Shown here: in pieces, positions 12,165-50,391 of the stretch
Position numbering within the stretch: position 1 is the first letter of the stretch
Layout of the letters: the number at the start of each line of letters is the position of its first letter
NCBI GenBank assembly: GCA_043719155.1
Contig: JAYSUJ010000024.1
Span: 3,424 to 67,423 of the forward strand
DNA from: a bacterium
Lineage (GTDB): Bacteria; Patescibacteriota; Minisyncoccia; Phycocordibacterales; UBA5272
Direction: 5' to 3'
Length of the DNA stretch: 64,000 nt
Notes under the pieces: generated by a model
Databases searched by the model: none
What the model saw: only the letters and a program-made list of their open reading frames with translations
What the model was told of the DNA's origin: nothing
Program-made: the position numbers and the translations under genes

Positions 12165-12204
12165 AATAAAAAAGTGGCCAGTTTCGCGAAGCGAAACTGG
12201 CCAC
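12165..12204 (-). terminator. Strong GC-rich intrinsic terminator of the vWA gene
   Basis: Perfect 14-bp stem gtggccagtttcgc-gaa-gcgaaactggccac, followed on the minus strand by a T-run. Confidence 0.7.
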
Positions 12205-12231
12205 CACTGACCCAACTTTAGCCCTTAAGCT

Positions 12232-13329
12232 TTAGTCGATGTCAAAATCGAACCCACCACCACTGTCGTTGCTTCCGCTGTCGGACGAGCCACCACCCCA
12301 AGAAGGAGTGCTGTCTTCGCTCGAGCTGTGCGAAGGTTGGGTGTAAGAACTATCAGCATCACTGCTGTCGTCACCACTGTTGCCATCCTGGAGAGCTTCC
12401 AGGTCGTCCTCATCATGGACGTCGCCGTCGGTTTCGAAACCGCCAGTCTGCTCGCCGTTGGCGTCCAATGAGCCCTTGGTAGGGTCAAAGTCCGCTGGCA
12501 AGAGAGCGATCTCCTGCTGGAGATCGGCAGGCAACGAGAACATGTCCGGGAGGGGTTCATCGAATCCGGACACATCCTCTTGGACAGCTTGTTCCCAGGT
12601 CTTGGAAACACCGTCCACACCCATGGCTTCGTTGCGGTCAGCTTCAGAGAAGCCGAGCGACGAAGCTTGGGCAGAGCCAGGCGCAAGAAGGTGATAAGCC
12701 AACCCGAGCCCAGCGGCGGCAACGAAGGCCATGGCTACAGGGTTGCTTCCGCCACCCTTGCCTTTGCCGAACCAGCTCGACTTTGCAGCCGGCTGATTGT
12801 TGCCTTGAACATGCACGTTCATCACGCGCTCCTTGGGGATACCCATCGGCTCAGCCTGTTGCCAGGCGTCGATGTTGGCCCCGAGGTAAATCACGATAGT
12901 TCCGGCTTTCTGTTTGCGCTCCACCAGGGCGCGCAAGGCAGAAAGCTGACTAAACTCGCCTTTCGAGGCGTTTTCGATACCGTCGGTAAAGAGCACCACG
13001 ACATAGTCGGTGTCCTGCTCGATGTTATCGTTCAGGGCAGCCGCCAAGTTGTCGTAGAGCGGAGTCAATGCCCGAGGCACGTACTCTTCGTATTTGAGGT
13101 CAGCGATCTCGCCACCGAGTCCTTGACGAAGGACATCGGTCCCCATGCTGTCAAAAGTGACGAGCCGGAGGTAGGCGGTCTTGCCACGGGAATCATTGCG
13201 CATCCGGCCGAGGTAGGCATTGCTGCCTTCCACCACCCTGCGCCGCCACGAATACATGGAGCCGGACTTGTCCGCGACAAAGCGAACTTCAAGCTTACGC
13301 TTCGCTGCTTTCGCTACGATTTGAGCCAT
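12232..13329 (-). CDS. von Willebrand factor A (vWA) domain protein with a TM segment and an acidic Ser/Asp/Gly-rich disordered tail; GC-rich foreign patch
   Basis: MIDAS motif FVADKSGSM...LFTDG. TM-like VAMAFVAAAGLGLAYHLL. C-terminus ...DSSDADSS...GGGSSDSGSNDSGGGFDFDID. Codon usage and GC are conspicuously unlike the flanks. Confidence 0.7.
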   Translation of the reverse strand: MAQIVAKAAKRKLEVRFVADKSGSMYSWRRRVVEGSNAYLGRMRNDSRGKTAYLRLVTFDSMGTDVLRQGLGGEIADLKYEEYVPRALTPLYDNLAAALNDNIEQDTDYVVVLFTDGIENASKGEFSQLSALRALVERKQKAGTIVIYLGANIDAWQQAEPMGIPKERVMNVHVQGNNQPAAKSSWFGKGKGGGSNPVAMAFVAAAGLGLAYHLLAPGSAQASSLGFSEADRNEAMGVDGVSKTWEQAVQEDVSGFDEPLPDMFSLPADLQQEIALLPADFDPTKGSLDANGEQTGGFETDGDVHDEDDLEALQDGNSGDDSSDADSSYTQPSHSSSEDSTPSWGGGSSDSGSNDSGGGFDFDID

Positions 13330-15050: not shown

Positions 15051-15443
15051 GTCACGCATAAAATTTGTATTCACAATTTTTTGCGCTACCCCGACTCACT
15101 CGTTTCGGCTCGCTTTGCTCACATCGAAACTTCGCTCCGTCTTTCAATTCCCCTAAAACATACAAACAATTTTAAAACCCCACAAAGGGGGTCTTAAAAT
15201 TGTCTGGGTATCTAACGGTCCAGGAAATGAACACCCTTATATTGGATTTCAACCGTATAGGGACTATATTATCTGGTATTTTTCAGAAAAGTAACAGTAG
15301 CAAACTTCAATAATGACCACTAATCTAAAATTGATTGTTGAGTCTTTTGGAATTAACGATTTCTCCGGTTTTTAACTTTAATTTTTTGTATTTTTCTTTC
15401 GTAAACTACATCTTATTTTCAATTAGATTTGTTGTTCTTTGGA

Positions 15444-15872
15444 TTATTTCAGCGACTCTTCAAAATTAGTTTTAATTTCTGGGTTAACTTTTCTCAATTC
15501 CAAAATAAAACCTTTCAAGTCTGAATCGACTAGAAAAAATGGATATATATCATATAAAAACCTACTGCCATCTTTTTTTCTCACTTCTATATCCTCTTTG
15601 AACAGAGCAGGTCTTTTTACAACCAATGATATATCTTGAATATTTATATTTCTCTTGAAGAAGACATAATCTCGTATCAAAAAGTTACTACTAATAATTA
15701 ACTTTATTTGATTAAAGTATAAATACAAGATTACAAATAATGCGATAAAATACAGTATGTTTGTATAGTCTACATCTGCACCAAAGAAAAAAGAAATTAA
15801 AGCGGGAAAGCAGACTATTGTGAATAGAACCATAAGTCTAATAATTAAAAAATTAAGTTTGTATACTTTCAT
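15444..15872 (-). CDS. Putative toxin immunity protein, a 2-TM membrane protein; paralog of the upstream gene
   Basis: 142 aa with two N-terminal TM helices plus a cytoplasmic domain. C-terminal GFILELRKVNPEIKTN parallels EFLEFVEELKKYNPDIKIN of the neighbour. Confidence 0.55.
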   Translation of the reverse strand: MKVYKLNFLIIRLMVLFTIVCFPALISFFFGADVDYTNILYFIALFVILYLYFNQIKLIISSNFLIRDYVFFKRNINIQDISLVVKRPALFKEDIEVRKKDGSRFLYDIYPFFLVDSDLKGFILELRKVNPEIKTNFEESLK

Positions 15873-15926
15873 ATTATTTATTTAAGAAGTTATTAGACTC
15901 TACCCAATACAACACATTTGGATTAC

Positions 15927-16388
15927 CTACCATATCATATACTTTGCAACCCAAGAACCCCAATTTACGTTAATTTTAATGTCTGGATTATATTTTTTGA
16001 GTTCTTCAACAAATTCCAGGAATTCATTTTTTGAAGAAAAATAATTTGAGATTTGAGGAATTAGTATTTTTCCATTTTTATCAACTAGATTTAGAAATAC
16101 AATTACTGGCAGGACTTTAATTTCAAAAGAGCCAATGTCTATTACTTCGACCAACCTATCCTTAAATCCCTTTTTCTTATAAATTATCAATCTATTTTCA
16201 ATATCAAATTGTAGGAAACTAAACTTTTGAATTACCCAAGTTAGTGACACTATAAACAAAAAGAAGCCCGAGAAATATTCAACGGCACTCTGAGATATAC
16301 TTAACATCCAAATTGAAAATATAAAACAAAGAAGATACAATGCCACAACTGAAAGCCTAATGGAAAACTTATTATTAAGTACCTTCAT
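15927..16388 (-). CDS. Putative toxin immunity protein, a 2-TM membrane protein, immediately downstream of the RHS toxin
   Basis: 153 aa. Starts 2 nt after the RHS stop codon and shares the same architecture as the 15444..15872 paralog. Confidence 0.55.
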   Translation of the reverse strand: MKVLNNKFSIRLSVVALYLLCFIFSIWMLSISQSAVEYFSGFFLFIVSLTWVIQKFSFLQFDIENRLIIYKKKGFKDRLVEVIDIGSFEIKVLPVIVFLNLVDKNGKILIPQISNYFSSKNEFLEFVEELKKYNPDIKINVNWGSWVAKYMIW

Positions 16389-16390
16389 AA

Positions 16391-19300
16391 TTATTTTTTA
16401 TTTGATTTAATTTCTTGTATTTGAAATAATCCCCAGTCTAAATAATTAACACTTCCTACATTTGTAATCTGGTTTGTTTTAATATTGTTTCCATTAAAGT
16501 AATTGTTCATTATTAGTCCAGGAATATTTTGTATTGTCTCTTTTCTAATTTCATTTTGTGTTGCTACGCTTGTGATTTGCGAAATTAATTTTTCTGCTGG
16601 TCTTCCTAGGGTTGGTCCAATTAATTTACCAGCAACTGCACCACCAAATGCTGTTGCAAAAGCATCGGTGGTAATACTATTAGTAGAAATATTTTTATCT
16701 AATAGTGAATTTCCAACAGTTGAATCTATAACAGCACTGCCAACTCCTCCACCAACTGAACCAACAATTAACACTCCAGTTGCACCAAGTCCAGCCGCAG
16801 TAGCACCAGCCGCAGTAGCCGCTGCTGCACCAACTACAGCCACCCCTTTCCCCCCAGAATACATATAATCACCAAATGTAGACAAACTTCCATTTTGATA
16901 ATCATTAATTCCTTGCACTGCAACACCTCCAATAAATCCAATTCCAACCCCAATACACATTGGGCATTTACCATCAGGGTCATATTTATGAATTGGGTCA
17001 TTTACTGCATAAGAATACCCATTTTGAAGTTGGGGATTTTCAAGAAATATTTTTTTGTCTTCTCCCTCATAATTCTTTGGGTCAGGAGAAATAAAGATTC
17101 CATAATTACTAGAATTATAACGAGCATTCATATAAATCAAATTATTTTCTTTGTCCATTTGTTGATTAGTATACCCTCTATTCCCATTCGTCACACCTTG
17201 TTTTTCAACATTCCCAAAGGCTTTGTAAGAGGACGTTGATATTTCTGTTCCAATAGTGAAATCTAAAATCTTTTCAATACTGTTCAAATGGTCCGTCACA
17301 ATAGTTTGTATGGCGAGAGTGGAAGTGGGAGTGTAAATAGTTGAGGTAGAAGTTACAATAGTTGGAACAGAAGTGGTGGAGGTAATCCAAGATACTGTAG
17401 TAGTGGATACATTTACATTGGTAGTGGTAGTTGCATATTTTAGATTCTTTAGAGTGAATAAGTAGGAATCTAAAATGTAATAGTTATCTATGCTTGGAGT
17501 AGAGGTAGCAATACTGGAATTAATGGAGAGGGTAATGTCAGGAGTTTTAGGAAGTAAAATAATTTGAGTAGACTGATTAAAGTATTTCATTGTGCCACTG
17601 GCAGTACCACCTATGGTAAATGTAATTCCTTTACTAATTACTCCAGTTCCCTCGGTGATACTAGTAGTGTAAGATTTGTTGTTCTTGGCTCCGGCGAAGT
17701 AGAGGGTTAGGGTTTGGGTGGCGGTGGTTAGGCCTGTTAATTTAATAATATGATTTGAAGAAGTTGCACCGTTTTTACCTACGAAGTAATTTATTGTATT
17801 TGGCGTAATGGTAGCCGAAGACATTATCATAGAAGTGGTGCCAATACCCTTAAACTCGTCCCATTGTAGAGAGTTAATAGTAGTTTCTCGTAAACCTACC
17901 CACAATGATTTAGATACTGTAGAAGTGGATACTTTGTAGGTGGGAACCGTAATTGTTGCAGTTGTGTAAACCGCTGTGGTTGTGGCTACTTGAATGTATT
18001 GAGTAGAAGTGGAAACTGTTTGCGAAATAATATCTTTCCAAATTCTGTCTATGTTTAATATCGGTTTATTTCCTAAAGTTATTTGATAACTTGTGGTTGA
18101 ACCGGTGTTTTGGATAGATTGGTTTGGGGTGAATAATCTACTTTTAATTGTGGAACTAGAAGTGGTAGCAGTTATTTGGTTATTGTTAATCACAAAACTC
18201 AAAACCCTATTTCCCTCTGTGTCATAATAGTATTTGGAAGTAGTAGAAATATTCCCATTTACTTTTTTAATCTCTTTTACTCTGTCCAAATTATTCCACA
18301 CAAAGTCACCAAGCATTGTAGAACTTGCCAATCTCCCTTTGTTATCCCAGTTTAAATTATCACTAATATTTTCTTTTGCAACTTTACTTGGTGTGTGTGC
18401 TAGAGTATTTGCATACTCATAGTTATTTCCAGTATTAGACAATATTTTCCCAGTTGGTGAATAACTAAAAGTTTCCTCTACTTTTTTCATAACTTTATCT
18501 TCTTTCTCTACTTGAGTTAATCGAGATAATTCGTCATAAGTATAAATTGTATTTTCAAAACGATTATCTTCATCACGCAAAATACTTTTAATACGAGAAA
18601 GTGTGTCATAAGAGTAAGAAGTATTTTGTGGAGATTTGAAGTCACCAGTAGTGAACATATTAATTGTTCCATCTTTAAGTAGATAATAATACTTGGCATT
18701 TTTCTTCAATTTATTTCCAACATATCTAATTTCTTTTTGATTTACAGTAAATGTATCTATGGTTGTGGAAGCAATATTAGAAGATGCCGCGATATTGATT
18801 TGTCCAAAGTTTGAAGAGTTGGAAACATTGAATATCGGGTCTGGACAATTTACTGAACCTAAATCTGTATTGGTAATTGATTTACAGAATACAGTGTTGG
18901 TATTTCTATCTAACTTGTCACTTGTTTTGTAACTACTTGTTGCATACTCTGACCAGTCACCATTTATGTCACGACTACGAGTAAAGATTTCATAATCTGT
19001 GTTGTAAGAGAATGGAAACTTATCTACTAAGTATGAGGTAGAGGCAATGGAAGTGGTTGCCACAGTTTCTAATTGAATGAAGTTAGAGGTTGAAGTTGAA
19101 TTAGTTTTAGCCCGCAAGTAAACTTCATTTTCTATGATTGCATCTTTTTCAATGTCAGTATTTGCAACTGAAATATTGGCAACTAATCCTTGCCCCTGTT
19201 TATTTATAACCAAACTTGAAATAACTGGCTTGGTATTCGAGGCATTGTATTGAAGAGTTAAACCGGCGTGTATTTTGTAAGCGTTCTCTGCTCCCGTATC

Positions 19301-22300
19301 ACTTCGGTAATACAACTCTTGAAAATTGTGTGAGAAAGACAATGTGTTTTTAAGTTCTGGAGTTGAAGTCGCCAAAGTTATTTGTGCATTGGTTGCAGAG
19401 TGACCTGTCAAGATACACACTCCAATGTATGCCCCTGTTCCATTTACATAATCTGCTAAATAATTATTATTTACGTCCACTTTTAACCAAGTATTAGTAG
19501 CAATAGTGTTAAAGAATATTTTATCAGAGTAGGCAGTACCAGTGGCACATTGGTTATATGTCTGTCCACTGTCTGGCCATACTGGAACTCCCATACTTCC
19601 GTTTCTTTTAAAGAGTTGAATGTAACTGTTTTCATCGTTTATTTGATTAACTTTTTCTTTAACAAAGAAATTGTAATAGGCGTCAACTAAAGATGAGGTA
19701 GCAAGACCAGAACTTTTGTTGGTTGAAAATACTAGACCAGAGTCCAAAGTATTTAATGTTAAATTAGCGGGTATTACTATTTCTTCTCCAATAGGATTAG
19801 TTGTTCCAAAGAATTGTAGCAAATCAAGTGAAGTATCTCTATCTTGTCTACGCATATAGGTAGTATTTCTAATAGCATCGATAAAACTTTGGGCTGGTGA
19901 ACTTGGATATAGTATATACCCACCGATGTTAATTCCATTACTTTGAATTGTTCCGTAATAACTTTCTACCCCTTGTCTTGCTCTTACTTGGGTTATTTTT
20001 ATCGCATTAGCATAGGGGTGTAAAGTTTTTACTACTGATACATTGGTATATGGGTTTGTTGAATAAATATACTCCCCACTTGTTTTACTTACTTGTATTA
20101 AGTTTTCACCAGGTAAACCTTTTTCTCTAACTACCGATGCCGTAGATGTTGCAATATTGGTTGGCAACCCTACATAGTTTATATTTCCAAAGTCATAGGA
20201 GTTTTTACCCCCTATAAATGAAATTGTGTTGGAAATACGATTTAGATTTTTATCGTCATAAGTATTTTGAGTTCGAAGTATTCCTCTGTCATAAGCAACA
20301 ATTTGACCCAGCACATTGTATTCTGGGTTTTCAAATACTTTAGTAGTAGTTGAATAAAAATCACCAAAGAAAATAGATTTTATTTTTCCTTTTGCTAATT
20401 CATTAGTTGTAGTCGATACCCCGTCACCAGTGGTGATAATATTTCCCAGTAAATCATAGACAAAATATTGGGTTGATTTTGGTGACCAGATACTATTGTT
20501 GGTAACAGTTTCAATCTTATCAACTTCACCACTTCCGTTGTATGAATATTTTTTAACAATTCCGTCAGATGAACTTGCCACACATAATTTACCTAATCCG
20601 TTTGTACAAGAGTCGTAAATATATTCATTCAGCAAGTTATTTGTAACAATAATAGTAGTCGTAGCCACTGTTGAAGTTCCAATAATTATGTAAGTGGTAG
20701 TTGCAAAAGAAACAACTTCTGTATCAGTTGCTTTTCTACCAAGTAAGTCAAATGTAGTTTTAACTTTGTCCCCATTTGTAAATATACTTTCCACAAAGTC
20801 GTTAATTTCTCCATAACTGGTATTGGTATATGATGTAGATGTCCCTTTATTAGTTAACTCGTCATAAATTTTTCTGTTAGAGAAATCATAGCCAATATTT
20901 CTAATTGCATTTTCAGAATCTAGTATATTTACTAGATTCCCTAAAATATCATAGGTATATTTAGTGTTGTAAACTACTCCACTGTTATTTTCCACCACTT
21001 CTTTTATCAGTCCGTCTTTGTCATACACAAACCCTGTTTGATGATTGTTTTTATCAAACACGATTTTACTTCTAGCCCCATAATTTGCTTTGTCTGTTCC
21101 AAGCACGGTTTTAGTTTCTATCACTCTTCCAAAACTATCACGCACATAAGTCTTGTAATTGTAAACTGGTAAAGTTATTCCGTCACTTCTCCCAAGTGTG
21201 TAAGTAGTGTAAGGTAAACTTTCTTTAACAACATTCCCAACTTCGTCGTAGAAAGTGTCAGATGTAGAGTAATTGTTATTTACAGTTTCTGTTTTTGTTT
21301 TGATTACTTTCCCAAAGCCGTCAAAGTAGAACACTGAACTTAAAGTATCAGTTGCAGTAAAAAACTTTTTAACTGTTACATCTGGGAAATTAGCATCACT
21401 GTAAACTCTTTCCTCTAACAAATTGTTATTTTTCCAAGTTTTAACAGTCCTACCAAAGCCGTCATACTCCACTCTGTTTTCCAAATTATTTTGGTCAACA
21501 CTACGCTTTACTTTACTTGTATTGTAATCGTAAACAAAAGTATTTATTTGTCCTAAAGCATTAGTAGTTTTGATTGGGAATAACTTTTGCGTGTCATATT
21601 CAATAGTTGTGGTTGCACCTCTACTGTTCACTGTCAGTGTCGGCAACCCGAACACTATATCGTAAACAGTTTTTTCACTTTGCTTGGTCGTTGTTCCAGT
21701 GTAAGTATCTTTTTGAGTAAGTAGTCCACTTGAAATGGTAGAATCTAAATTATTGTCATAGAAATAATTTTCTTTTGCAAGTAAGTTACCATTTACATCT
21801 TTCAAAGTTTTAGAAGTGGGTAAATACTTTTTAGTTTGGGTTTGGGAATTGTTGTAAGATATTTCCAAAACTTTTGTGTCAGCAATATTTGTATCTGTAA
21901 TTGTTTGTGAAGAAGTTGTCACATCTCCATAACTAATTTCCTTTACCTTATTTAAGTTATTATCAAACATATATTCACTTGCAGTCGTAAATACAGCCCC
22001 ATTATTTTGGTCCACTACAGACGTATTATTTCTAACTGGAACAATTGCTGTTGAAGAAGCAGTCAGGGGGTTAAAGATTTCAGAGTATGAAATCAAATCT
22101 CTTTTTTCTAAAGAATTATTTTTGTTAAAAGTTTCTTGTTTGTAAAGTTTTCCTGTCTTACTTGCACTATCTTTTATCTCATCTACACTGTCACCGTTTC
22201 CTTGGTGATAGTAAGAGATTGTTTTCAACGAGTTGACCTCTATTGTAGTAACTTTTCCAAATCCAGCAAGGGTATTTTCGAAGTTCCCCTCACGAATTAT

Positions 22301-24583
22301 GGAGGCATCTTCATAAATATATTCACGAGCGGAAATCATTCCAGTTCCGTCCTTACTAATTTCTTTTTTGAGTGTCCAAACTGGATAGCCAATTTTATTG
22401 GCTCTGGTGCCGTCTGTTTTTTTATATGAACTTGCAGGTGCATATTCAAAACTAGATTCACCGCCTAAATTGTTTTTAATTCCAGTAAGTAAATCGGCTT
22501 TCATTTTAGAAGCGGTCACAGAGAAAGTATTTGAGGTATTGGGAGAGCGGGCAATGTCAGGTAAACCGTCACCATTTAAGTCAGCCGAAAAAGCAATTTG
22601 GTATTGTATTTGTTCTGCCTCTGTAAAACCGTCAAAGTTAAAGTCGGTGTAGAGGTTATCGTAAAAAGACATTCCGTTAAAAATGTGCGAGTAATATGAA
22701 ATTGGGAAATTGTATTGTGCGGAAGAAGTAGCGTCCAAAAGCACCATATCTTTTCCATTATTTAGCCAAATTTTTTTGTAAGTGTTATCTACAAAGCCAT
22801 TTATACCGACTGCTGACTCGTTTAATTTATATACATTTATCAAATCATCCAGTCCATCATTGTTAATATCCAGATATACAAATGAAGCGTCTATCATTGC
22901 ATCTCTGTTTTGTGAGAACCAACCAGTTGCTTTTAAGTCTGGGACTCTATCTCCGTCGAGGTTAGCAATTTTAAAACCATTTGGATAACTTGGAAAGTTG
23001 GATTGTTCCCAGAATAATGAAGTTGTGGCATAAGTTCTTTCAGTTGAACTGGCTACAACAACTTGTGTGGTAGTTCCCACAACAACTGTTGAGGTTGAAG
23101 TTTTAATAGTATCCTTGTAATTTATTCCCTTTATTCCTGCTCCCAAAACATCTACATTTCCGTCACTGTCATAGTCATAGAAAAAGTTATTAACAGGTTG
23201 ATTTATATTTACATAAGAGTGAAATTGAGAGAGGAAAAATGGTATTTCGGCTGTTGGCATTTCTCGACAATCATAACCTGGTTGAGAGTTAGTTTGGGGA
23301 TTACAATTAGTAGTTTTGTCTAACAAAACTTTTTCAGTAAAGGTAAAATCTCCATCGTTTAGATAAACTTTTTTAACTACACGGTGATTATTGTAATAAT
23401 CTCCAAAGAAAGTTTGGCGAGAATATACCAGGTCATTAAAACCGTCACCATTTATGTCTACGATTCGGTCAAAGTTGTCTTTGGGAATACCCAATGTTTT
23501 AGTTTCTGTTTGTGGTTGAGAGTAAGTAAAAACAGTTTCTGGTAAAGTGGTTTGTGTTCCATTTTCACCAAATGCAGATTCGATGATACCAGCAAGTAAA
23601 CTTCTTTTACCATTTACACCAAGTGAATATCTAAAAGCAAAATTCTTGGTTTTATTTCCGTTTACAAATACCTCTGTTCCAAACATTCTTTTATTGTTCT
23701 TTATCAAGTATCCAGTTTGATAACTTTCTAGTTGGTCAGGACGATTTTCAAATGTAAAACGGACTTCGTAAATACCGGGCTGATTTAAGTGATTCGTATA
23801 GAAAATACTTTGTGGGTATACAAAATTATCGTCTTTAGAGTAAGTATATTTTATGGAGTTTCCAAATACGTCAACTACCTCGGTTAAATACCAAGTGTGG
23901 ATTTCAGAGGTTGAAGATGCAGAGTTTATTCTACTTTCAGTATTTCCTCCATAAACGTATTTCATACCAGAATTATCTTTAACTTCCCAAGTGTCACCAA
24001 CACGAGTGAACTCACTGCGACCTGTGTCATTTTTCTTTGGAACAAAGATTTGAGAGGAGGTAGTCTTAACTAATTCTCCGTAGGTGTTTGAGGTAAAGTT
24101 TTCGTCTGTGTAGAGTTTAATTATTCCATTCTTGTTTACCCTTTGTATGTATGGAAGTGATAGGTCAAAACCAAACCCTACCCAGTTTTGATTATTTTCG
24201 TTTTGAGAGTTGTAGTTCACCGATATATCCGGAGTCATTCCATTTCTTCCCTCTGGAACTTTCAATTTGTAGTTATATTGCAGTGAGCCAGTATTACCCT
24301 CGCTCTTTGGTTTGTTAGGTGAGTCAATAGTAACACCGCTTGAGCCAGTGGTAGAATAGTCATAAAAGACTGGGGCAGAGAAAACATTATTTACTCCCAC
24401 ACAACCAATTAAAATACCCATTAAAATTAAATTTTTTAATGGGTTGGGGAAACCACTTGGAAAACTACTAGACGATTCTTGTCTACGCATATTATTGTTA
24501 TTTTTATTAAAATTACTCACTTTTAATGACTTTACTCTCATAAAGATACCCACATAATACCATAATCTGTAATACTTAAGCAA
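16391..24583 (-). CDS. Giant RHS/YD-repeat polymorphic toxin (Tc-toxin TcB/TcC-like) with a glycine-zipper-rich C-terminal toxin domain
   Basis: Signal/TM near the N-terminus. SpvB/FG-GAP-like repeats [56 protein letters not shown]. Many YD repeats ([25 protein letters not shown]...). The RHS core ends with a DPxG motif (...[12 protein letters not shown]), followed by about 200 aa: [19 protein letters not shown]...[34 protein letters not shown]... Confidence 0.85.
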
Positions 24584-24741: not shown

Positions 24742-25854
24742 ATGGATAATCTTGAGGCAACTTTATTAGAAAAAATGTTTTCAAAATTACGTAGAAGACT
24801 TTTATTATTCATATTCAGAAAAAGACTTGGTAAATCAAAGTTTGCAGCGAGTATTTTGTTTAGAATAATAAATACTTTAGAAACTAGTAAGGGAGTTTAC
24901 ATAAACACAAAAGATATCGGGAATACCGACCACTTTGTTCCTCAATTTTTACTACGTAATTTTAGTATAGAAAAAGCAGGTCAAAACAAAGGATTAATTT
25001 TTGAATATCTGTTTTCTAAAAATGTAATTAAAAAGAGCGGGATAAAATCTGTTGCTTGTAAAAAAGATTTATATACATTTAAAGATAAACTGGGTGAAAA
25101 GTCAGACTTCACTGAAAAAATTATTTATTCACAAAATTTGGAGTTATTCAGTGCGACAATTTTTCAAAGTATTGTGGACGACAATAAAACTTTCAAACTG
25201 ACCCCACTGGAAGAATCTACATTGGCAGTGTTTCTCTCTCACCAAATTACGAGAACACCTTATTTTCTAGACTCAATAAAAAAATTTGTGATTTATCTTT
25301 ATGAGAACGAAAAAATATTGTTTGAAGATTTCAACAAAATCGACTCGTTAGATTCAAAAATTATAAACAATGAATACAATGTATCTTATGAAGATATTGT
25401 CAGTTTTGTCCCGAGAATAAACTTTGACGGACTTCATAATCATTTAGGATTACTGTCGTTGAGAATTGCAACTAAGTTAGCCGAGGGAATATACAAGGGT
25501 TATCTTGAAATAATTGATATTAAAGAAACAGTCACAAAAAACTTTGTAATATCAGACAATCCGGTGGTATTGTTCGACCATAAACGAAAAGAAGTCTTGA
25601 AATTTCCTGCTTGGTGGGATTTAAGCAAAAAAGATATATTTATTTTCTTACCAATATCACCAAGTAAATGTATATTTTATTCCAAGTATGACACCAAACC
25701 TGGTTTTAAAGAATTAGAAGATAATCCCTTTATAGATTTAGTAAATTTTGGAAGTTATACAAACTGCACAAATTCAGTTTTTTCTAACAAAAAAAAGGTC
25801 CTGGAAACACATCTTGTAATGTATGAAAGTGAATTAAGAAATTATTTAACCTAA
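24742..25854 (+). CDS. Hypothetical protein, possibly DUF4238-like
   Basis: The N-terminal HFVPQFLLRNF resembles the H-x-V-P-x-F motif that I recall from DUF4238. That is a recollection, not a verified match. Confidence 0.35.
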   Translation: MDNLEATLLEKMFSKLRRRLLLFIFRKRLGKSKFAASILFRIINTLETSKGVYINTKDIGNTDHFVPQFLLRNFSIEKAGQNKGLIFEYLFSKNVIKKSGIKSVACKKDLYTFKDKLGEKSDFTEKIIYSQNLELFSATIFQSIVDDNKTFKLTPLEESTLAVFLSHQITRTPYFLDSIKKFVIYLYENEKILFEDFNKIDSLDSKIINNEYNVSYEDIVSFVPRINFDGLHNHLGLLSLRIATKLAEGIYKGYLEIIDIKETVTKNFVISDNPVVLFDHKRKEVLKFPAWWDLSKKDIFIFLPISPSKCIFYSKYDTKPGFKELEDNPFIDLVNFGSYTNCTNSVFSNKKKVLETHLVMYESELRNYLT

Positions 25855-28251: not shown

Positions 28252-29211
28252 TTACTTAAACCAGTTGAAAATGTAATCTTTAAATCTTTTATAAACAGGA
28301 ACCCACTCCTCTTTTTTGTCTTCGATTTTTATTTCTTTAATTTCAGTAGGCAATTCTTTTTTCTCGTTGGGAACTAACTTTTCAATTTTCTCTACTGGAG
28401 TTGATGGGAGTGTTTCTTCTTTCGGGATTACTTTTTTAGTTGGTTTTGCGATAGGTGCAATTATTTTTGCAGGCGTTATCACTTCCTCTGTTTTTATTTC
28501 AACTTTTATGTTTTTTTGCTCTACCGATGTTATTTTCGGTTGAGTTTTTAATTCTACTTTTTCTGCGACAAATGGTTTTCCATTGGGATACTTTGCCTTG
28601 TAAAGTGCTTTTACTCTTAATGCAACACTCTCATTTCTAATATACATATTCTGATATAGATTATTTGCTTTTTCTGTGGATAATGAGTCCATTAGTTCAA
28701 ATAAAATTACAACCTTTTCTTGTGGATAATAGTTGTCTTTCGGTGTTGTTTTTTCTGCTTGGCTTGCTCTCAATTTGGCAATCTCTGCTTTCAATTCTGT
28801 AATTTGATTTTTATTTTGCTCTGTATTTTGTATTTGCGATTGGTGTAAAGCCTTTTGTTGGACCAAAGAATCTATTTGTGCTTGAAATTTTGCATCTATT
28901 TTTGCAGATAAAATATCATAGGCTGACTGAACAAAAGAGCCATTCTGTGCCATAGAACCTTTCAAATAGTTTTTTTCTATTTCCTTTTCTCTTTCTAATT
29001 CAGTTATCCTGTTTTCAATATCTAGTATAGAAATTCCAGGACTATTTTGAGATTGGTTTTCTAGTTTTCGTAATCTGTATTCCAAAGCCGATTTTTCTTC
29101 TTGTTGTTTAATGTAAACGTCGTCTGGTAGATAATTATAGTCGGTAGCAAAGGCACTTGTTTGTATTAAAAATACACTTAAAATCAAAAAAGTTATTATT
29201 TTATTTTTCAT
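28252..29211 (-). CDS. Secreted coiled-coil, Lys-rich protein
   Basis: Signal peptide, a long Q/E/K-rich coiled-coil segment, and a Lys/Pro-rich C-terminus. Confidence 0.45.
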   Translation of the reverse strand: MKNKIITFLILSVFLIQTSAFATDYNYLPDDVYIKQQEEKSALEYRLRKLENQSQNSPGISILDIENRITELEREKEIEKNYLKGSMAQNGSFVQSAYDILSAKIDAKFQAQIDSLVQQKALHQSQIQNTEQNKNQITELKAEIAKLRASQAEKTTPKDNYYPQEKVVILFELMDSLSTEKANNLYQNMYIRNESVALRVKALYKAKYPNGKPFVAEKVELKTQPKITSVEQKNIKVEIKTEEVITPAKIIAPIAKPTKKVIPKEETLPSTPVEKIEKLVPNEKKELPTEIKEIKIEDKKEEWVPVYKRFKDYIFNWFK

Positions 29212-29445
29212 ATTGTTTGTCGCGTTTTATTTTAAAGCCCTTTTCACACAAAAAACCTATCACTAGGAAAACCCGAGGGTTTACATACTCGTTTCCAAGT
29301 ATGACGCGACAAACGCCCTAATGATAGGCTCTTTACATTTGTCGCGTTTTTGACCATATCCCAAATCTTATTTGGGGGTTAGGTCTCCGATATTTTATCG
29401 TCTAAATAATTATATCACAATTTTAAAAAGTAAAATTGGAAAAAA

Positions 29446-31727: not shown

Positions 31728-33476
31728 ATGGAAACAAAAACAAAAAACTCATACCAATACGGAAGAGTAAGCACGCCCGAACAATTAACTTCTGGCGACA
31801 GTTTAACTCACCAAGATAAAGTGACAAAAAATGAAGCAATCAGAAGAGGTATAAACCCAACAAATTTTTATGGCGATACAATTTCCGGGTCTTCAATTAC
31901 CCGGGACGGTTACGACCAAATGTTTTTTGATTTAAAAAAAGCAAACAGTAAAATCCAAACAATATTCTACGTGATTATAAAATGTATTGACAGATACACA
32001 AGGGGTGGAGCAGAGTTCTATATAATGATGACGAACGATTTAAAAAAACTCAATGTTCAACTAATAGATGTGGCCGGGATAATCCAAGAAGAAAAAAATA
32101 GTTTGGAAGACAAAGGATTCACATACGAATGGAGTAAATACAGACCGAGCGAAACAGCAGAACTCATAGAAGCCCAAAAAGGTAAGGGTGAAAAACGAGA
32201 TATCTTAACTAGGACCATAGGGGCACAAATTTCTCTAACCCAAAAAGGTTTTCGTATGGGGAGTCCCCTTGATGGAATGAGAAGCGAAACACAACTAACT
32301 GACGGAAAAAATAGAATTGTATTTGTCAGAAAAGATGGATTTGTGCATTTTATAGAAAAGATTTTTGAAATGAGGGCAAGTGGTGTAAATTCAGATTTAG
32401 AAATTATTTCAACTTTGAATGCTATGGGATACAAATCCCCAATAAGAAATAGGTGGTCAAAAAATAGAGAGAAACATCTAGGCCAAACAGGCGGCGGACC
32501 TTTAGATTTGAAACGGCTAGAAAAAATCTACTCGAAAGTTGGATATTGTGGAATCTTACTCCATAAGTGGAATAAATATTTACCGATAAATGGTCAGATA
32601 GAAAAAATCATTTCTATTGAAGTCTATAACAAAGCAAACAAAGGAAAAAGATTTATTGTCGAAAACAGTGATGGAACTTACGAAATAAAAACAAATTACA
32701 ACCCAATTCAATCAAGGCCTAGATTAGAAAAAAATCCACTTTATCCGTACGCAAAAGTTGTTAAATGCCAATTCTGTGGTTTAGGCTTTAAATATAGCGC
32801 CGCAAAAGGAAAAAACAAAAAGAAGTCCAGTCCAGGATATCATTGTTCGTATAAACACGAATATTTTAGGAAGCCAAAAAAGGAGTTTGAAGATACCATA
32901 GAAAATTATTTGAAGTCGCTTTCTCTCACGGACGCTTTCGTTGAAAAAATGCAAAAAGAATTGGTCGATACTTTTTCAACTAAAAGTGGCGAACTAAAAA
33001 ATAAATTTGCAAAGATATTTGTAAATATTGCAGACCTTAAAGCCGAACAGGAAAAATACATTAGCGAATACATTGCTACCAATAATCCAATAATAAAAAG
33101 TTCTATTGAAAGTAAAATCAACAAAATTGAAGAGCAAATTAAAAATGCCACAGATGTTGGTGAGGAAAATGAGGTTGAAGAATTAAATGTTGACGAGTTT
33201 CTTGCTTACACCAGAAATTTTTTGAAAGACCCATCAAATCTTGTTTTGGAAGAAAAAACAAATGTTGATACAGTGGGTGTTCTATTCAGTCTTATATTTG
33301 AAGAAAAACCGACCTACAATAATATCTTGTATCGAACACCTAAATTAACCAGTGTTTTCAAGCACTTTTCTGCAAACAAACAACCAGAAAACCAATTGGG
33401 GTGCCCAATGGGAATTGAACCCATACTAGGGGATCCACAAACCCCTGTGATAACCATTTCACTATGGGCACCATAG
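31728..33476 (+). CDS. Large serine recombinase (integrase of the island); its 3' end reads through tRNA-His antisense
   Basis: The N-terminal YGRVSTPEQ is the resolvase/invertase catalytic serine motif. A recombinase domain follows, then a zinc-ribbon-like CQFCGLGFKY...HCSYKH and a C-terminal coiled coil. Confidence 0.8.
   Translation: METKTKNSYQYGRVSTPEQLTSGDSLTHQDKVTKNEAIRRGINPTNFYGDTISGSSITRDGYDQMFFDLKKANSKIQTIFYVIIKCIDRYTRGGAEFYIMMTNDLKKLNVQLIDVAGIIQEEKNSLEDKGFTYEWSKYRPSETAELIEAQKGKGEKRDILTRTIGAQISLTQKGFRMGSPLDGMRSETQLTDGKNRIVFVRKDGFVHFIEKIFEMRASGVNSDLEIISTLNAMGYKSPIRNRWSKNREKHLGQTGGGPLDLKRLEKIYSKVGYCGILLHKWNKYLPINGQIEKIISIEVYNKANKGKRFIVENSDGTYEIKTNYNPIQSRPRLEKNPLYPYAKVVKCQFCGLGFKYSAAKGKNKKKSSPGYHCSYKHEYFRKPKKEFEDTIENYLKSLSLTDAFVEKMQKELVDTFSTKSGELKNKFAKIFVNIADLKAEQEKYISEYIATNNPIIKSSIESKINKIEEQIKNATDVGEENEVEELNVDEFLAYTRNFLKDPSNLVLEEKTNVDTVGVLFSLIFEEKPTYNNILYRTPKLTSVFKHFSANKQPENQLGCPMGIEPILGDPQTPVITISLWAP
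33396..33417. repeat. 22-bp direct repeat, the att-like right boundary, inside tRNA-His
   Basis: Identical to 15029-15050. Confidence 0.75.
33397..33472 (-). tRNA. tRNA-His (anticodon GTG) with encoded G-1 and 3' CCA
   Basis: Manual fold on the minus strand. G-1 is followed by the acceptor GTGCCCA/TGGGCAC and a D-arm GTGA-AATGGTTA-TCAC. The anticodon loop is TT-GTG-GA, the T-arm ATGGG-TTCAATT-CCCAT, and the discriminator C pairs with G-1. Confidence 0.8.
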
Positions 33477-49842: not shown

Positions 49843-50391
49843 TTATTTTTTTGAATTTATTTTCTGAAAAATTAAAATTAATGAAAGTATAGAGATGGCA
49901 CTGAAGGCTAAAATAGCCATAAGTGGTATGGTTATAAACCCAAATACTAGAATAGAGCTTTCAGTACAGGATGGTGTAAGTCCAACTACCGAGCAAGCCA
50001 TATCTATTTTGTTTCCAAGCACAATATTTTGATAGTGAAAGTAATAATGGTAAGCAGCTATCAGTCCTCCACCCAAAGAAAGCAGTAAAGTCAAAAACTC
50101 TATATCTTTCTTTTTGAAATAAATTGCCCACAAAATAATCGCATCGATGGGAAACATAAAAATTCTCTGCCACCAGCAAAAATCACAGACAGGTGTGTAA
50201 TAAATAAATTGATAAGCCAAAACCGATAGAGTAGAAAAAATTGAGGTGAAGCCGATTAATTTTAAAATAAAAAAATAATCTAAATCCAAGTTTTGCCAAA
50301 ATTTATCTACCAAAAAAATGGTTAGAGAAAACAGAAAAAACAAAACAACCGACACTGAAAGAAAAGTTGAAAATGTATCTACATCTAGCAT
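49843..50391 (-). CDS. DsbB/BdbC-like disulfide bond formation membrane protein
   Basis: Four TM helices. CDFCWWQRIF supplies the first periplasmic-loop Cys pair, with the QR, and a second Cys pair follows at MACSVVGLTPSC. Confidence 0.5.
   Translation of the reverse strand: MLDVDTFSTFLSVSVVLFFLFSLTIFLVDKFWQNLDLDYFFILKLIGFTSIFSTLSVLAYQFIYYTPVCDFCWWQRIFMFPIDAIILWAIYFKKKDIEFLTLLLSLGGGLIAAYHYYFHYQNIVLGNKIDMACSVVGLTPSCTESSILVFGFITIPLMAILAFSAISILSLILIFQKINSKK

Follow-up and report, generated by a model that had tools for sequence, protein, structure and literature searches.

A polymorphic Rhs toxin locus of a Paceibacteria bacterium with a putative membrane-pore tip and cognate and spare immunity genes

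We conclude that the 64 kb window analysed here (the whole stretch of 64,000 nucleotides), from the chromosome of a tiny, uncultured, groundwater-type member of the Paceibacteria (CPR/Patescibacteria), contains a polymorphic-toxin locus with a probable membrane-pore tip, a cognate immunity gene and a spare one, and we place the probability of this complete reading at roughly 60%. That the locus encodes a toxin together with its immunity is strongly supported, and all those elements of the sequence-only interpretation that lend themselves to computation were borne out. We observed the architecture of such a toxin, the homologies of its parts, strict linkage of its C-terminal domain (CT) to an immunity gene, an orphan cassette and co-variation of subfamilies. 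Rhs toxin systems themselves are a well-known bacterial weapon, and the novelty lies in the CT and immunity families, which have not been classified before. On the minus strand, the list of open reading frames comprised the giant Rhs toxin gene (16391..24583; 2730 codons in the translation, counted from a TTG) and two small downstream genes, each encoding a protein with two transmembrane (TM) segments. The toxin frame is open over 8.2 kb in a genome of 35% GC, so a chance origin is impossible. The first small gene, the cognate immunity candidate I1 (15927..16388, minus strand, 153 aa), starts 2 nt past the toxin stop, exactly as the sequence-only reading had stated: the stop codon occupies 16391-16393 and the next ATG lies at 16388. 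After a gap of 54 nt follows the paralogous spare (orphan) candidate I2 (15444..15872, minus strand, 142 aa), and about 240 nt downstream of I2 a consensus scan marked a terminator-like hairpin (15163..15206, minus strand; a 19-pair stem, then a T-rich tail), a pattern match only, which is possibly the end of the operon.

The giant protein aligned along its length with two RHS proteins, P0002 and the main Rhs protein of locus L004. Its translation probably begins at one of two ATG codons (15 or 32), both of which precede a segment resembling a signal peptide (residues 52-70). Hydropathy and sequence placed a putative Sec signal peptide at 24374..24490 (minus strand) under the assumption that translation starts at Met32; the hydrophobic segment spans about residues 51-73, with a core at 52-64 and a c-region ...VFSA/P, and the homolog P0002 possesses a clear N-terminal signal peptide. 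A TcB/SpvB-like domain follows (residues about 91-420; 23324..24313, minus strand), which matched Pfam SpvB with an E value of 2e-15, and a profile of the N-terminal region (A6) retrieved YenB (4.6e-12), TcdB2 (3e-8) and SpvB (1.5e-7) from the PDB. The next part (17228..23323, minus strand) was assigned as a divergent FG-GAP-like propeller and RHS/YD shell by alignment to P0002 and the L004 main Rhs. In the toxin itself, the Pfam matches to RHS_repeat (E 0.027) and FG-GAP (E 0.058) both stayed under the threshold; the shell was assigned because the region aligns with P0002 (24% identity over 933 aa), which has clear RHS_repeat (1e-18) and TEN_YD-shell matches and also carries FG-GAP. Identity to the L004 main Rhs was 29% over 605 aa, with the similarity ending at residue 2543, and about 900 aa of the toxin (residues about 1470-2390) are without counterpart in the homologs. 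The Rhs-associated core (residues 2453-2539; 16967..17227, minus strand) scored 51 bits against a cutoff of 32.5 for NCBIfam TIGR03696 (Rhs_assc_core; match over residues 2453-2538) and ends ...YDPDGK, where DPDG/K is the presumed autoproteolytic release site. The SpvB hit, the TcB matches in the PDB, the shell homology, the core and its YDPDGK end bear out the earlier identification of a Tc-like RHS toxin. Of the SpvB/FG-GAP-like propeller described in that reading, the SpvB part stood and the FG-GAP part fell below the threshold, and its dozens of YD repeats could not be verified, with RHS_repeat sub-threshold and strict YDxxG occurring 10 times (about 2 expected).

The remaining 191 aa (residues 2540-2730; 16394..16966, minus strand) form the C-terminal toxin domain, a new and rare family with relatives found solely as Rhs tips. 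It is composed of 16% Gly and 10.5% Ala, and hydropathy analysis revealed three hydrophobic segments. The N-terminal helix, GxGxGFxGG...Q...DYQ, is conserved, and behind it lie 40 Gly/Ala-rich residues free of charge. A third segment resembling a zipper comes next, then the conserved sequence GR.A...TQ.....E and finally a polar N/Q/S tail. The hydropathy pattern is family-wide, with CT residues 1-20 resembling a TM helix, residues 41-80 lacking charges and a third segment covering 102-121, and the hydrophobicity of the segments is moderate (KD about 1.7). Residues G121, T136, Q137, E143 and Y156 of the CT are invariant across both CT subfamilies, while the terminal tail is of low complexity and unlike between them. 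The CT holds 7 GxxxG motifs. Its count of glycine-zipper motifs exceeds the expectation from composition only marginally (8 vs 3.9, p about 0.04), and the homologs show no enrichment, the first zipper GxGxGFxGG alone being conserved. These counts qualify the earlier description of the CT as a glycine-zipper domain. Searches of Pfam, NCBIfam, PDB sequence profiles and plasmids returned no match to the CT, which agrees with its being called unrecognised, and no enzymatic family was matched in Pfam/NCBIfam-type searches, in line with its being unlike a nuclease, deaminase or ADP-ribosyltransferase. The PDB profile search, in which the Tse5 and EsxX complexes should be included, gave no match to a proven pore former, and the AF2 model of the CT was unusable (pLDDT 33.7).

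To find the relatives of the CT, 1.84 billion protein representatives were searched exhaustively. This search returned two real relatives, P0002 (E 4e-32) and P0003 (E 1e-7), and two further CTs were read from contigs (L006 and L019); the family comprises five CTs in all, so its conservation statistics are weak. In four of the five loci the CT lies directly after the DPxG of the Rhs core, and the fifth (L006) is a truncated fragment in which the upstream part is not visible. Behind all five CTs, a gene of the small-protein family starts 0-4 nt downstream. In L004, the full main Rhs ends in a CT of another kind and has an 86-aa 2-TM gene behind it; next comes a 545-aa rhs-CT fragment, which bears a CT of the window family and the immunity gene P0005. 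A single substitution separates this fragment from the main Rhs in the ~165 aa that were compared before YKDPNG, and the two split directly after the motif. Together with P0005, the fragment makes up a classic orphan cassette of rhs-CT and immunity gene downstream of the main Rhs. The locus L002 adjoins an orthologous cation-efflux gene (68% identical), and its CT, immunity gene and shell are 49%, 37% and 24% identical, respectively, to those of the window. These values show a fast, paired divergence of CT and immunity, as described for CDI ionophore/CdiI pairs (PMC11630599). The divergences of CT and immunity were correlated (Spearman 0.87 over 10 non-independent pairs), and each of the two CT subfamilies goes with an immunity subfamily of its own.

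Both I1 and I2 possess two N-terminal hydrophobic segments, as had been anticipated for them. I1, for which the AF2 model had a pLDDT of 65.5, continues with a C-terminal domain of about 90 aa containing an NPxIK motif, and the positive-inside rule predicts an N-in/C-in topology with this domain in the cytoplasm. The best-conserved part of the family is this C-terminal soluble, probably cytoplasmic domain, not the TM hairpin. I1 and its positional counterpart behind the L002 CT were 33-37% identical. BLASTP aligned I1 and I2 over only 37 aa (E 6e-5); hhalign of the I1-type and I2-type subfamilies gave a probability of 93% and an E value of 3e-7 over 133 columns, confirming the proposed paralogy. 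I2 falls into a third subfamily and is 50% identical to P0010 (L018), which lies 2 nt after an ORF of which 42 aa are visible. Because I1 and I2 are true paralogs and the other CT loci carry a single immunity gene each, I2 was taken as the spare, consistent with the pairing of cognate and spare immunity suggested before. The small-protein family has 9 members among 5.8 billion proteins. In the window, L002, L004/L005, L006 and L019, a member lies immediately behind a CT of this family; in two other loci (L007/L008) a member without a CT adjoins immunity-type genes. P0009, an orphan immunity gene without a CT, shares its gene row with a weak Imm26 match, DUF4259 and the 86-aa 2-TM gene that also follows the main Rhs of L004. 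Members were found behind a CT, beside immunity-type genes or, for P0010, 2 nt after a barely visible ORF, and the idea that these are housekeeping membrane proteins of toxin-free loci fails.

A mechanism for a membrane-acting tip can be proposed on this basis. The giant protein is a natural fusion of TcB-TcC type, in which an SpvB-like domain, a beta-propeller and an RHS cocoon follow the putative signal peptide. Sec would export it, the folding RHS shell would enclose the last 191 residues, and the Rhs core would cut the chain after DPDG. When the protein touches a neighbouring cell, the CT, hydrophobic and rich in Gly and Ala, would be freed into the cytoplasmic membrane of the target, where it might act as an ion-conducting pore or ionophore and collapse the membrane potential, as has been demonstrated for the Rhs effector Tse5. 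I1 would be the cognate immunity protein, binding the CT in the membrane of the producer and possibly also during the Sec export of the toxin, and I2, a paralog that has diverged, would be retained as a spare that protects against competitors making a related subtype of the toxin. A pore-forming or depolarising CT is suggested by hydropathy and by the precedents of Tse5/Tsi5 and EsxX. Membrane action is favoured by the family-wide hydropathy, the lack of an enzymatic match and the membrane-embedded immunity protein. Against it count the lack of homology to any proven pore former, the barely enriched zippers, the only moderately hydrophobic segments and the unusable CT model; in addition, the conserved soluble domain of the immunity protein and the polar CT region GR.A..TQ..E fit a cytoplasm-facing activity equally well, and a Sec-exported cocoon would have to reach the target membrane without TcA, T6SS or an outer membrane.

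A cytoplasm-facing activity is central to a tentative and rather unlikely alternative, in which two parts of the CT do different work: the hydrophobic half (residues 1-120) would serve only as a membrane-entry or translocation module, while the polar region (about 121-160, GR.A...TQ.....E) would be an effector at or beyond the cytoplasmic face, neutralised by the cytoplasmic domain of the immunity protein. The polar half does hold the five residues invariant in both subfamilies, and the conserved part of the immunity protein is its soluble domain, predicted to be cytoplasmic. Glycine zippers may translocate rather than kill, as for Tde1 (PMC10240207), and CDI ionophore and nuclease CTs are built of an entry domain and an effector domain (PMC11630599). 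However, the conserved polar stretch covers only about 40 aa without a catalytic-family match, the remaining tail is of low complexity and differs by subfamily, and membrane-embedded immunity is more typical of membrane-acting toxins. The target might also be a host rather than a competitor, with a CPR epibiont planting the pore in the membrane of its host bacterium to extract metabolites or kill, and with the immunity genes serving as self-protection during Sec export. The CTP synthase (76% identity) marks the organism as a relative of the Paceibacteria, a group described as proliferating on host surfaces (PMC13622651), the signal peptide implies surface exposure, and a toxin passing unfolded through SecY would need self-protection, for which the compartment-specific immunity to EsxX offers a parallel (PMC12744356). 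We nevertheless consider a host-directed role improbable: orphan cassettes of CT and immunity gene, spare immunity genes and immunity-type genes standing in rows are hallmarks of competition between strains whose neighbours carry related toxins, a host-directed factor would not be expected to select for spare immunity genes, and no host is known.

The tightly coupled immunity genes and the orphan cassette, which imply a bacterial target, also make it highly improbable that the protein is the BC subunit of a tripartite Tc (ABC) toxin against eukaryotic cells with TcA elsewhere in the genome. Its TcB-like N-terminus and its layout like a fused TcB-TcC would suit that role, but no gene in the 64 kb window has the size of TcA or resembles it, the CT is neither an ADP-ribosyltransferase nor another known eukaryote-directed enzyme, and the genome is CPR-type. 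Hardly more credible is a non-toxin, in which the hydrophobic C-terminus would anchor a large surface or adhesion protein in the membrane and the small genes would encode unrelated membrane proteins. Giant surface proteins are numerous in CPR bacteria, and segments of the CT resemble TM helices; yet the CT follows a canonical Rhs core cleavage motif, is found as a swappable cassette behind another Rhs gene and never occurs without a member of the one rare small-protein family that is also seen beside immunity-type genes.

Signal peptide, SpvB, beta-propeller and RHS together define the 'TcdB/TcaC' trafficking class of polymorphic toxins (Zhang et al. 2012, PMC3482391), and the window shares with it the integrin-like propeller, RHS repeats, Rhs core, variable CT and downstream immunity, with orphan cassettes in related loci. 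The window differs from this class (PMC3482391) in that its CT and immunity families are outside those described and without Pfam/NCBIfam match, its RHS/FG-GAP Pfam matches are sub-threshold, and its host is of the CPR, a lineage absent from the 2012 list. A Pfam scan of the 53 window ORFs revealed no T6SS, T7SS, CDI or TcA genes, in agreement with the earlier statement that T6SS, T7SS and CDI partners are missing; the delivery route, which was called open there, is that of this known class. The candidate resembles Tse5 (RhsP1)/Tsi5 of Pseudomonas aeruginosa, in which an Rhs cocoon encapsulates a pore-forming, depolarising CT without enzymatic signature that is neutralised by Tsi5, with two predicted TM segments (PMC9637101, PMC10684867). 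However, Tse5, which is PAAR-like and depends on VgrG, is a T6SS effector from a diderm bacterium, whereas the window protein combines a Sec signal with a TcB-like N-terminus and has no T6SS genes around it; the window CT showed no sequence similarity to any PDB chain, and its immunity protein has an additional soluble domain of about 90 aa compared with Tsi5. Among other membrane-acting toxins, EsxX (LXG/T7SS) is a glycine-zipper depolariser with integral-membrane immunity (PMC12744356), and CDI ionophores (the CdiA-CT EC93 group) have hydrophobic helical tips and integral-membrane immunity proteins (PMC11630599). In both, the immunity proteins that belong to a single toxin group have diverged to about 30% identity, and other strains carry orphan immunity genes (PMC12744356, PMC11630599); their delivery scaffolds (T7SS, T5SS) differ from that of the window, and no sequence relationship to it was detected. 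With the BC cocoon of Tc toxins (YenB/YenC, TcdB2-TccC3), the window protein shares the TcB-homologous N-terminus, the RHS shell and a C-terminal aspartyl-protease core releasing the tip; it differs in lacking a TcA gene, in the fusion of B and C, in the presence of immunity genes and in a payload that is hydrophobic, not a eukaryote-directed enzyme. The window protein also resembles WapA/WapI of Bacillus subtilis, in which a bacterium with a single membrane uses Sec to place an RHS toxin at its cell surface, with a polymorphic CT and the immunity gene next to it; the CTs of WapA, however, are tRNases with soluble immunity proteins, and WapA carries wall-binding repeats instead of an SpvB domain and propeller.

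The gene for the Rhs toxin occupies positions 24583-16391 of the minus strand as an uninterrupted open reading frame of 2730 codons counted from a TTG, and an 8.2-kb open frame at ~35% GC is far beyond chance. The true start is probably the ATG at codon 15 or 32; the sequence-only reading of this locus stood as a whole, and the corrections it needed (start codon, repeat count and motif statistics) were minor. Outside the C-terminus, residues 52-64 are the sole segment of strong hydrophobicity, and VFSA/P comes after them. Hydropathy and sequence place a basic n-region before the wider hydrophobic segment (residues 51-73), with VFSA/P as the c-region, and the whole looks like a Sec signal peptide, which we treat as putative; P0002, a homolog of the Rhs toxin, possesses a textbook signal peptide. 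The toxin stop codon (16391-16393) is followed after a gap of 2 nt by the ATG at 16388 of the first small protein, I1 (16388-15927, minus strand, 153 aa). After a further 54 nt, the second small protein, I2, is encoded (15872-15444, minus strand, 142 aa), and a pattern match revealed a terminator-like hairpin at 15206-15163, ~240 nt beyond I2. In the rest of the window, tblastn revealed no additional Rhs core, remnant of a CT or paralog of the immunity genes. In addition, we noted a break in codon composition at 15444-16966: GC3 is 0.157 in the C-terminal tip (CT) vs. 0.272 in the Rhs body, and the overall GC of the I1 and I2 genes is 0.27-0.29 vs. 0.35 for the window. This break is consistent with cassette exchange, and amino acid composition may also be its cause.

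Pfam detected an SpvB domain in the Rhs toxin (E 2e-15, 57 bits vs. a cutoff of 22), and the NCBIfam Rhs-associated core TIGR03696 was found at residues 2453-2538 (51 bits vs. a cutoff of 32.5), ending in YDPDGK. FG-GAP_3 (E 0.058) and RHS_repeat (E 0.027, 15.3 bits vs. a cutoff of 22) stayed under the Pfam threshold, as did TIGR01643 under its NCBIfam cutoff; the FG-GAP_3 region aligns with P0002, which has FG-GAP matches. The strict motif YDxxG occurs 10 times vs. ~2 expected, so that the "dozens of YD repeats" reported at first were an overstatement. The shell showed 24% identity over 933 aa to P0002, the domains of which include RHS_repeat (1e-18), FG-GAP and TEN_YD-shell, and 29% identity over 605 aa to the main Rhs protein of locus L004. 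Such alignments to proteins with clear RHS_repeat and TEN_YD-shell domains (24-29% over 600-930 aa, E 1e-40 to 1e-50) strongly suggest that the shell shares its ancestry with bona fide RHS proteins, and the likeness to an Rhs with another tip stops at the DPxG motif. With the full-length toxin, phmmer gave no PDB match at 1e-3. TcB relatives in the PDB were recovered solely by a profile built from the N-terminal 330 residues with three sequences, which matched YenB (4.6e-12), TcdB2-TccC3 (3e-8), TcdB1 and SpvB. At the level of sequence, the Rhs toxin can be assigned with confidence to the cocoon architecture of the TcB/TcC type, including the cleavage motif of the core. Zhang et al. 2012 defined a "TcdB/TcaC" trafficking class of polymorphic toxins (PMC3482391), and the order of parts observed here, namely a putative signal peptide, the SpvB domain, propeller, RHS shell, core and variable tip, appears to be exactly the layout of that class, which would make the delivery class one that is already known. 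Approximately 900 residues in the middle of the protein (~1470-2390; window ~17400-20200) have no counterpart in P0002 (2061 aa) or in the main Rhs of L004; they contain Thr/Ser-rich low-complexity runs and no Pfam domain. We read this region as an apparent lineage-specific insertion in or on the cocoon that is so far unexplained.

The CT itself (residues 2540-2730; window 16966-16394, minus strand) comprises 191 aa, of which 16% are Gly and 10.5% Ala, with seven GxxxG motifs. CT residues 1-20 form a TM-like helix, the 40 residues from 41 to 80 carry no charge, a third zipper-like segment covers residues 102-121, and the tail is polar and N/Q/T-rich. Pfam and NCBIfam gave no meaningful match to the CT, I1 or I2, and Pfam gave none to any of five CTs, relatives included. 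Profile searches of the PDB chain sequences with the CT family and the immunity family also revealed no meaningful match, and the domain may rightly be called unrecognised, as it had been from the outset. An AF2 model of the CT based on a 3-sequence alignment reached a pLDDT of 33.7 and was not used for a fold search. Relatives surfaced only through exhaustive phmmer for the CT and through a family profile for the small proteins. In 1.84 billion representative proteins, phmmer returned three matches to the CT: P0002, a 2061-aa SpvB/FG-GAP/RHS protein (E 4e-32, 48% identity); P0003, a 545-aa Rhs C-terminal fragment (E 1e-7); and P0004 (E 4e-4), which was rejected as compositional, since it lies in a module of phage-like structural genes that includes a K1-lyase tailspike and has no Rhs context. 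Two more CTs were read from the short contigs L006 and L019. No CT match was found by a word-indexed search of 5.8 billion proteins, by the CT profile in GTDB species representatives or by tblastn in plasmids, and in JGI metagenomes the profile found nothing beyond the L002 contig that was already known.

The CT begins directly after DPxG[KRD] in all four CTs with a visible start; the L006 copy is a 188-aa fragment that ends at the contig edge, with the junction out of view. The family is conserved in a GxGxGFxGG...Q...DYQ motif, in its hydropathy profile and in a polar GR.A...TQ.....E stretch, and the five-CT alignment is too divergent for pattern design. The sequence-only reading had called the tip a glycine-zipper domain; one zipper, the N-terminal GxGxGFxGG, is conserved. 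The excess of (G/A/S)xxxGxxx(G/S/T) motifs in the window's CT is marginal (8 vs. 3.9 expected from composition, p ~0.04), and no enrichment was seen in the homologs. Since the motifs are barely enriched and a single one is conserved, the CT is accurately described as a hydrophobic, Gly/Ala-rich domain in which one zipper is conserved. In addition, of the four complete CTs, those of the window (16955-16966, CT residues 1-4), L002 and L019 have CPxC right after the presumed cleavage site DPxG[KR], and the tip may carry a disulfide or metal site there. A DsbB gene is present in the window at 49843-50391.

I1 and I2 each have two N-terminal hydrophobic helices, with basic residues ahead of TM1 and behind TM2. 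By the positive-inside rule, the predicted topology is N-in/C-in, and the C-terminal domain of ~90 aa would lie in the cytoplasm. Pairwise BLASTP aligned the two proteins over 37 C-terminal residues only (E 6e-5), and a profile-profile comparison of the I1-type pair with the I2-type pair gave a probability of 93% over 133 columns (E 3e-7). On this evidence the two are real, old paralogs at ~24% identity, in agreement with the paralogy that had been proposed from their C-terminal motifs. A word-indexed search of 5.8 billion proteins with I1 alone returned I1 itself only, and the family profile found nine proteins among 5.8 billion. Their contexts, described below, do not suit conserved housekeeping membrane proteins residing at unrelated loci. 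Matches of I2 to SPC25 and to a holin were weak, below threshold and due to TM composition. Because a single immunity gene lies behind the CT in every other locus, I2 is no obligatory second subunit; it is best read as a spare or orphan immunity gene, in line with the proposed pattern of a cognate plus a spare gene.

Five CT-immunity pairs are known, those of the window, L002, the L004 group, L006 and L019. In L002 (NCBI GCA_009612815.1), an Rhs protein with a 49%-identical CT is followed 3 nt on by a 153-aa gene with 33-37% identity to I1, and then by a degraded Rhs-core remnant; as in the window, the locus adjoins an orthologous cation-efflux gene (68% identity). A DUF4238 gene also lies by or near the Rhs locus in both (window 24742-25854, plus strand; syntenic L002 1-241). 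The 130-aa ORF 3' of the L002 immunity gene (12716-13108) is a degraded Rhs-core fragment (LNARFLEPNQSQFISQDPVFWEIGLTNDG…), which we interpret as the remnant of a displaced rhs 3' end and as evidence for past recombination there. In the L004/L003/L005 group, a full-length SpvB/RHS gene (>2700 aa), the hydrophobic tip of which is a different one, is followed by an 86-aa 2-TM gene, then by a 545-aa orphan rhs fragment carrying the window-type CT family, and then by the immunity family member P0005. Over the ~165 aa compared upstream of YKDPNG, the orphan fragment and the main gene are identical except for one substitution. The different tip (L004 1-8358, …DPNGELAFLAMPVIAVTLTAFEYFGY…) and the conserved 86-aa protein next to it, a pair also found in L007 1-540, suggest that this group of organisms has a second CT/immunity family of membrane type, as yet uncharacterised. 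In L006 and L019, partial CTs are followed within 1-4 nt by the family members P0008 and P0012. L007/L008 carry the family member P0009 without a CT. It shares a gene row with the 86-aa gene, DUF4259 and a gene that weakly matches Imm26, and this row looks like an immunity island. In L018, P0010, which shares 50% identity with I2, is preceded at a distance of 2 nt by another ORF with only 42 aa in view; this 42-aa tail has no similarity to the window's CT.

Across these loci, CT subfamily A (window, L002) is paired with the I1 type and subfamily B (L004, L006, L019) with the P0005 type, while I2 and P0010 form a third immunity clade. The divergence of the CTs is correlated with that of the immunity proteins (Spearman 0.87 over 10 non-independent pairs). 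Variable CTs with an adjacent immunity gene were observed in the five pairs, together with an orphan cassette (L004) and an orphan immunity gene (L007/L008). The CT tip acts as a swappable cassette, and its partner is obligatorily linked, co-varying and membrane-embedded.

The window is chromosomal; among its genes are those for ArgRS, L11, NusG, L19, CTP synthase and five tRNAs. Comparison of the CTP synthase gave 76% identity to the enzyme of a "Candidatus Paceibacteria" MAG and 52-54% to Saccharibacteria, and the source organism is therefore a member of the CPR/Patescibacteria. The related loci lie on low-GC contigs, with a 0.1-um groundwater fraction among the sources. In a Saccharibacteria genome, a large RHS toxin next to an immunity gene had been remarked on earlier (PMC6031116); thus, Rhs toxins in CPR are not new in themselves. 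Among the 53 window ORFs scanned, we found no T6SS, T7SS, CDI or TcA genes (for the T6SS, no PAAR, VgrG, Hcp or other gene), as had been noticed for T6SS, T7SS and CDI before any search.

The interpretation of this locus as an Rhs toxin with its immunity gene is supported, and we put the probability of the toxin/immunity assignment at about 0.9. It appears to be a TcdB/TcaC-class Rhs polymorphic toxin of a Paceibacteria genome, in which the hydrophobic tip belongs to a very rare family of novel sequence and the immunity gene to a new family that matches it. The Rhs toxin shares the TcB-like and TcC-like halves of the tripartite Tc (ABC) toxins, here as one fused polypeptide. However, in the Tc systems the TcA translocator is encoded with the BC genes, whereas the 64 kb window contains no TcA-like ORF and no ORF of >750 aa besides the Rhs gene. 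The closest functional precedent is Tse5, in which the Rhs cocoon encapsulates a pore-forming, depolarising CT that is neutralised by the 2-TM protein Tsi5 (PMC9637101, PMC10684867); the immunity candidate I1 is likewise 2-TM. The two CTs show no detectable homology: a cryo-EM structure of Tse5 has been published (PMC10684867), its sequence should therefore be among the PDB chains searched, and the CT family profile found nothing at E<=10 among all PDB chains. In addition, the delivery of Tse5 is T6SS-dependent through PAAR/VgrG, whereas the Rhs toxin has a putative signal peptide and an SpvB N-terminus, with no T6SS genes in the window. EsxX offers an analogue with a membrane immunity pair that also has orphan immunity genes (PMC12744356), and the CDI ionophore group another, in which immunity proteins are only ~30% identical within a toxin group (PMC11630599).

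By analogy with these systems, a depolarising mechanism of the CT is somewhat favoured. The Rhs toxin would be exported through Sec, its shell would fold around the tip, autoproteolysis would cut the chain after DPDG, and the released CT would enter the neighbour's membrane and dissipate the membrane potential. The main rival is a bipartite tip, in which the hydrophobic half would serve only for entry and the conserved polar stretch would be the effector that is met by the cytoplasmic domain of the immunity protein; we consider this unlikely. A host-directed role tied to an epibiont life style is possible, but it fits poorly with the spare immunity genes and orphan cassettes. The boldest proposal would be that the CT/immunity pair represents a new membrane-toxin class of ultra-small CPR bacteria, in which a Sec-exported, TcA-independent BC-fusion cocoon delivers the tip from the epibiont surface into the membrane of an attached cell, be it host or rival epibiont, and immunity acts via the cytoplasmic domain rather than in the bilayer alone. 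We regard this as improbable; if true, the locus would help to explain by what means Patescibacteria breach or drain the cells they partner with, and what opens an Rhs cocoon when neither TcA nor a T6SS is involved.

These findings add a tip family and an immunity family to the Rhs repertoire, with ~5 CTs and nine immunity proteins in public data. Paceibacteria-type CPR bacteria possess complete polymorphic-toxin loci, orphan cassettes and spare immunity genes, which implies strain-level warfare among ultra-small cells, and the present locus points to inter-strain conflict in CPR bacteria. Current models are not overturned, and the result would be no surprise to specialists. If the depolarising activity is confirmed, Tse5 would no longer be the only example of a hydrophobic pore former stored in an Rhs cocoon, and this second, unrelated case would have a putatively Sec-exported scaffold without TcA. 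The 191-aa toxin domain and the 153-aa immunity candidate also provide a compact test system and a data point on CPR ecology.

Several other features of the window were observed. A 1.1-kb island of 58-59% GC vs. ~34% for the genome was found at 12200-13300. Its ORF (12232..13329, minus strand) encodes 365 aa, in which VWA/MIDAS-like motifs (DKSGS...TDGIENAS) are accompanied by a hydrophobic segment and by a tail that is acidic and rich in Ser, Asp and Gly, and had no Pfam match. The island junction is also present in the independent Logan contig L001, and the ORF is probably a recently acquired foreign gene. A LOOT RNA (Rfam RF03000) was detected at 29268-29385 on the minus strand (74 bits; gathering score 46), a short distance upstream of a 319-aa ORF that has no annotation (28252-29211). 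Finally, a 582-aa serine-recombinase (Resolvase) ORF (31728-33476, plus strand) overlaps at its 3' end the tRNA-His gene at 33397-33471 (minus strand), which may mark one edge of an integrated element, ~7 kb away from the toxin genes; at the end of the syntenic contig L002, there is likewise a Resolvase/Recombinase gene.
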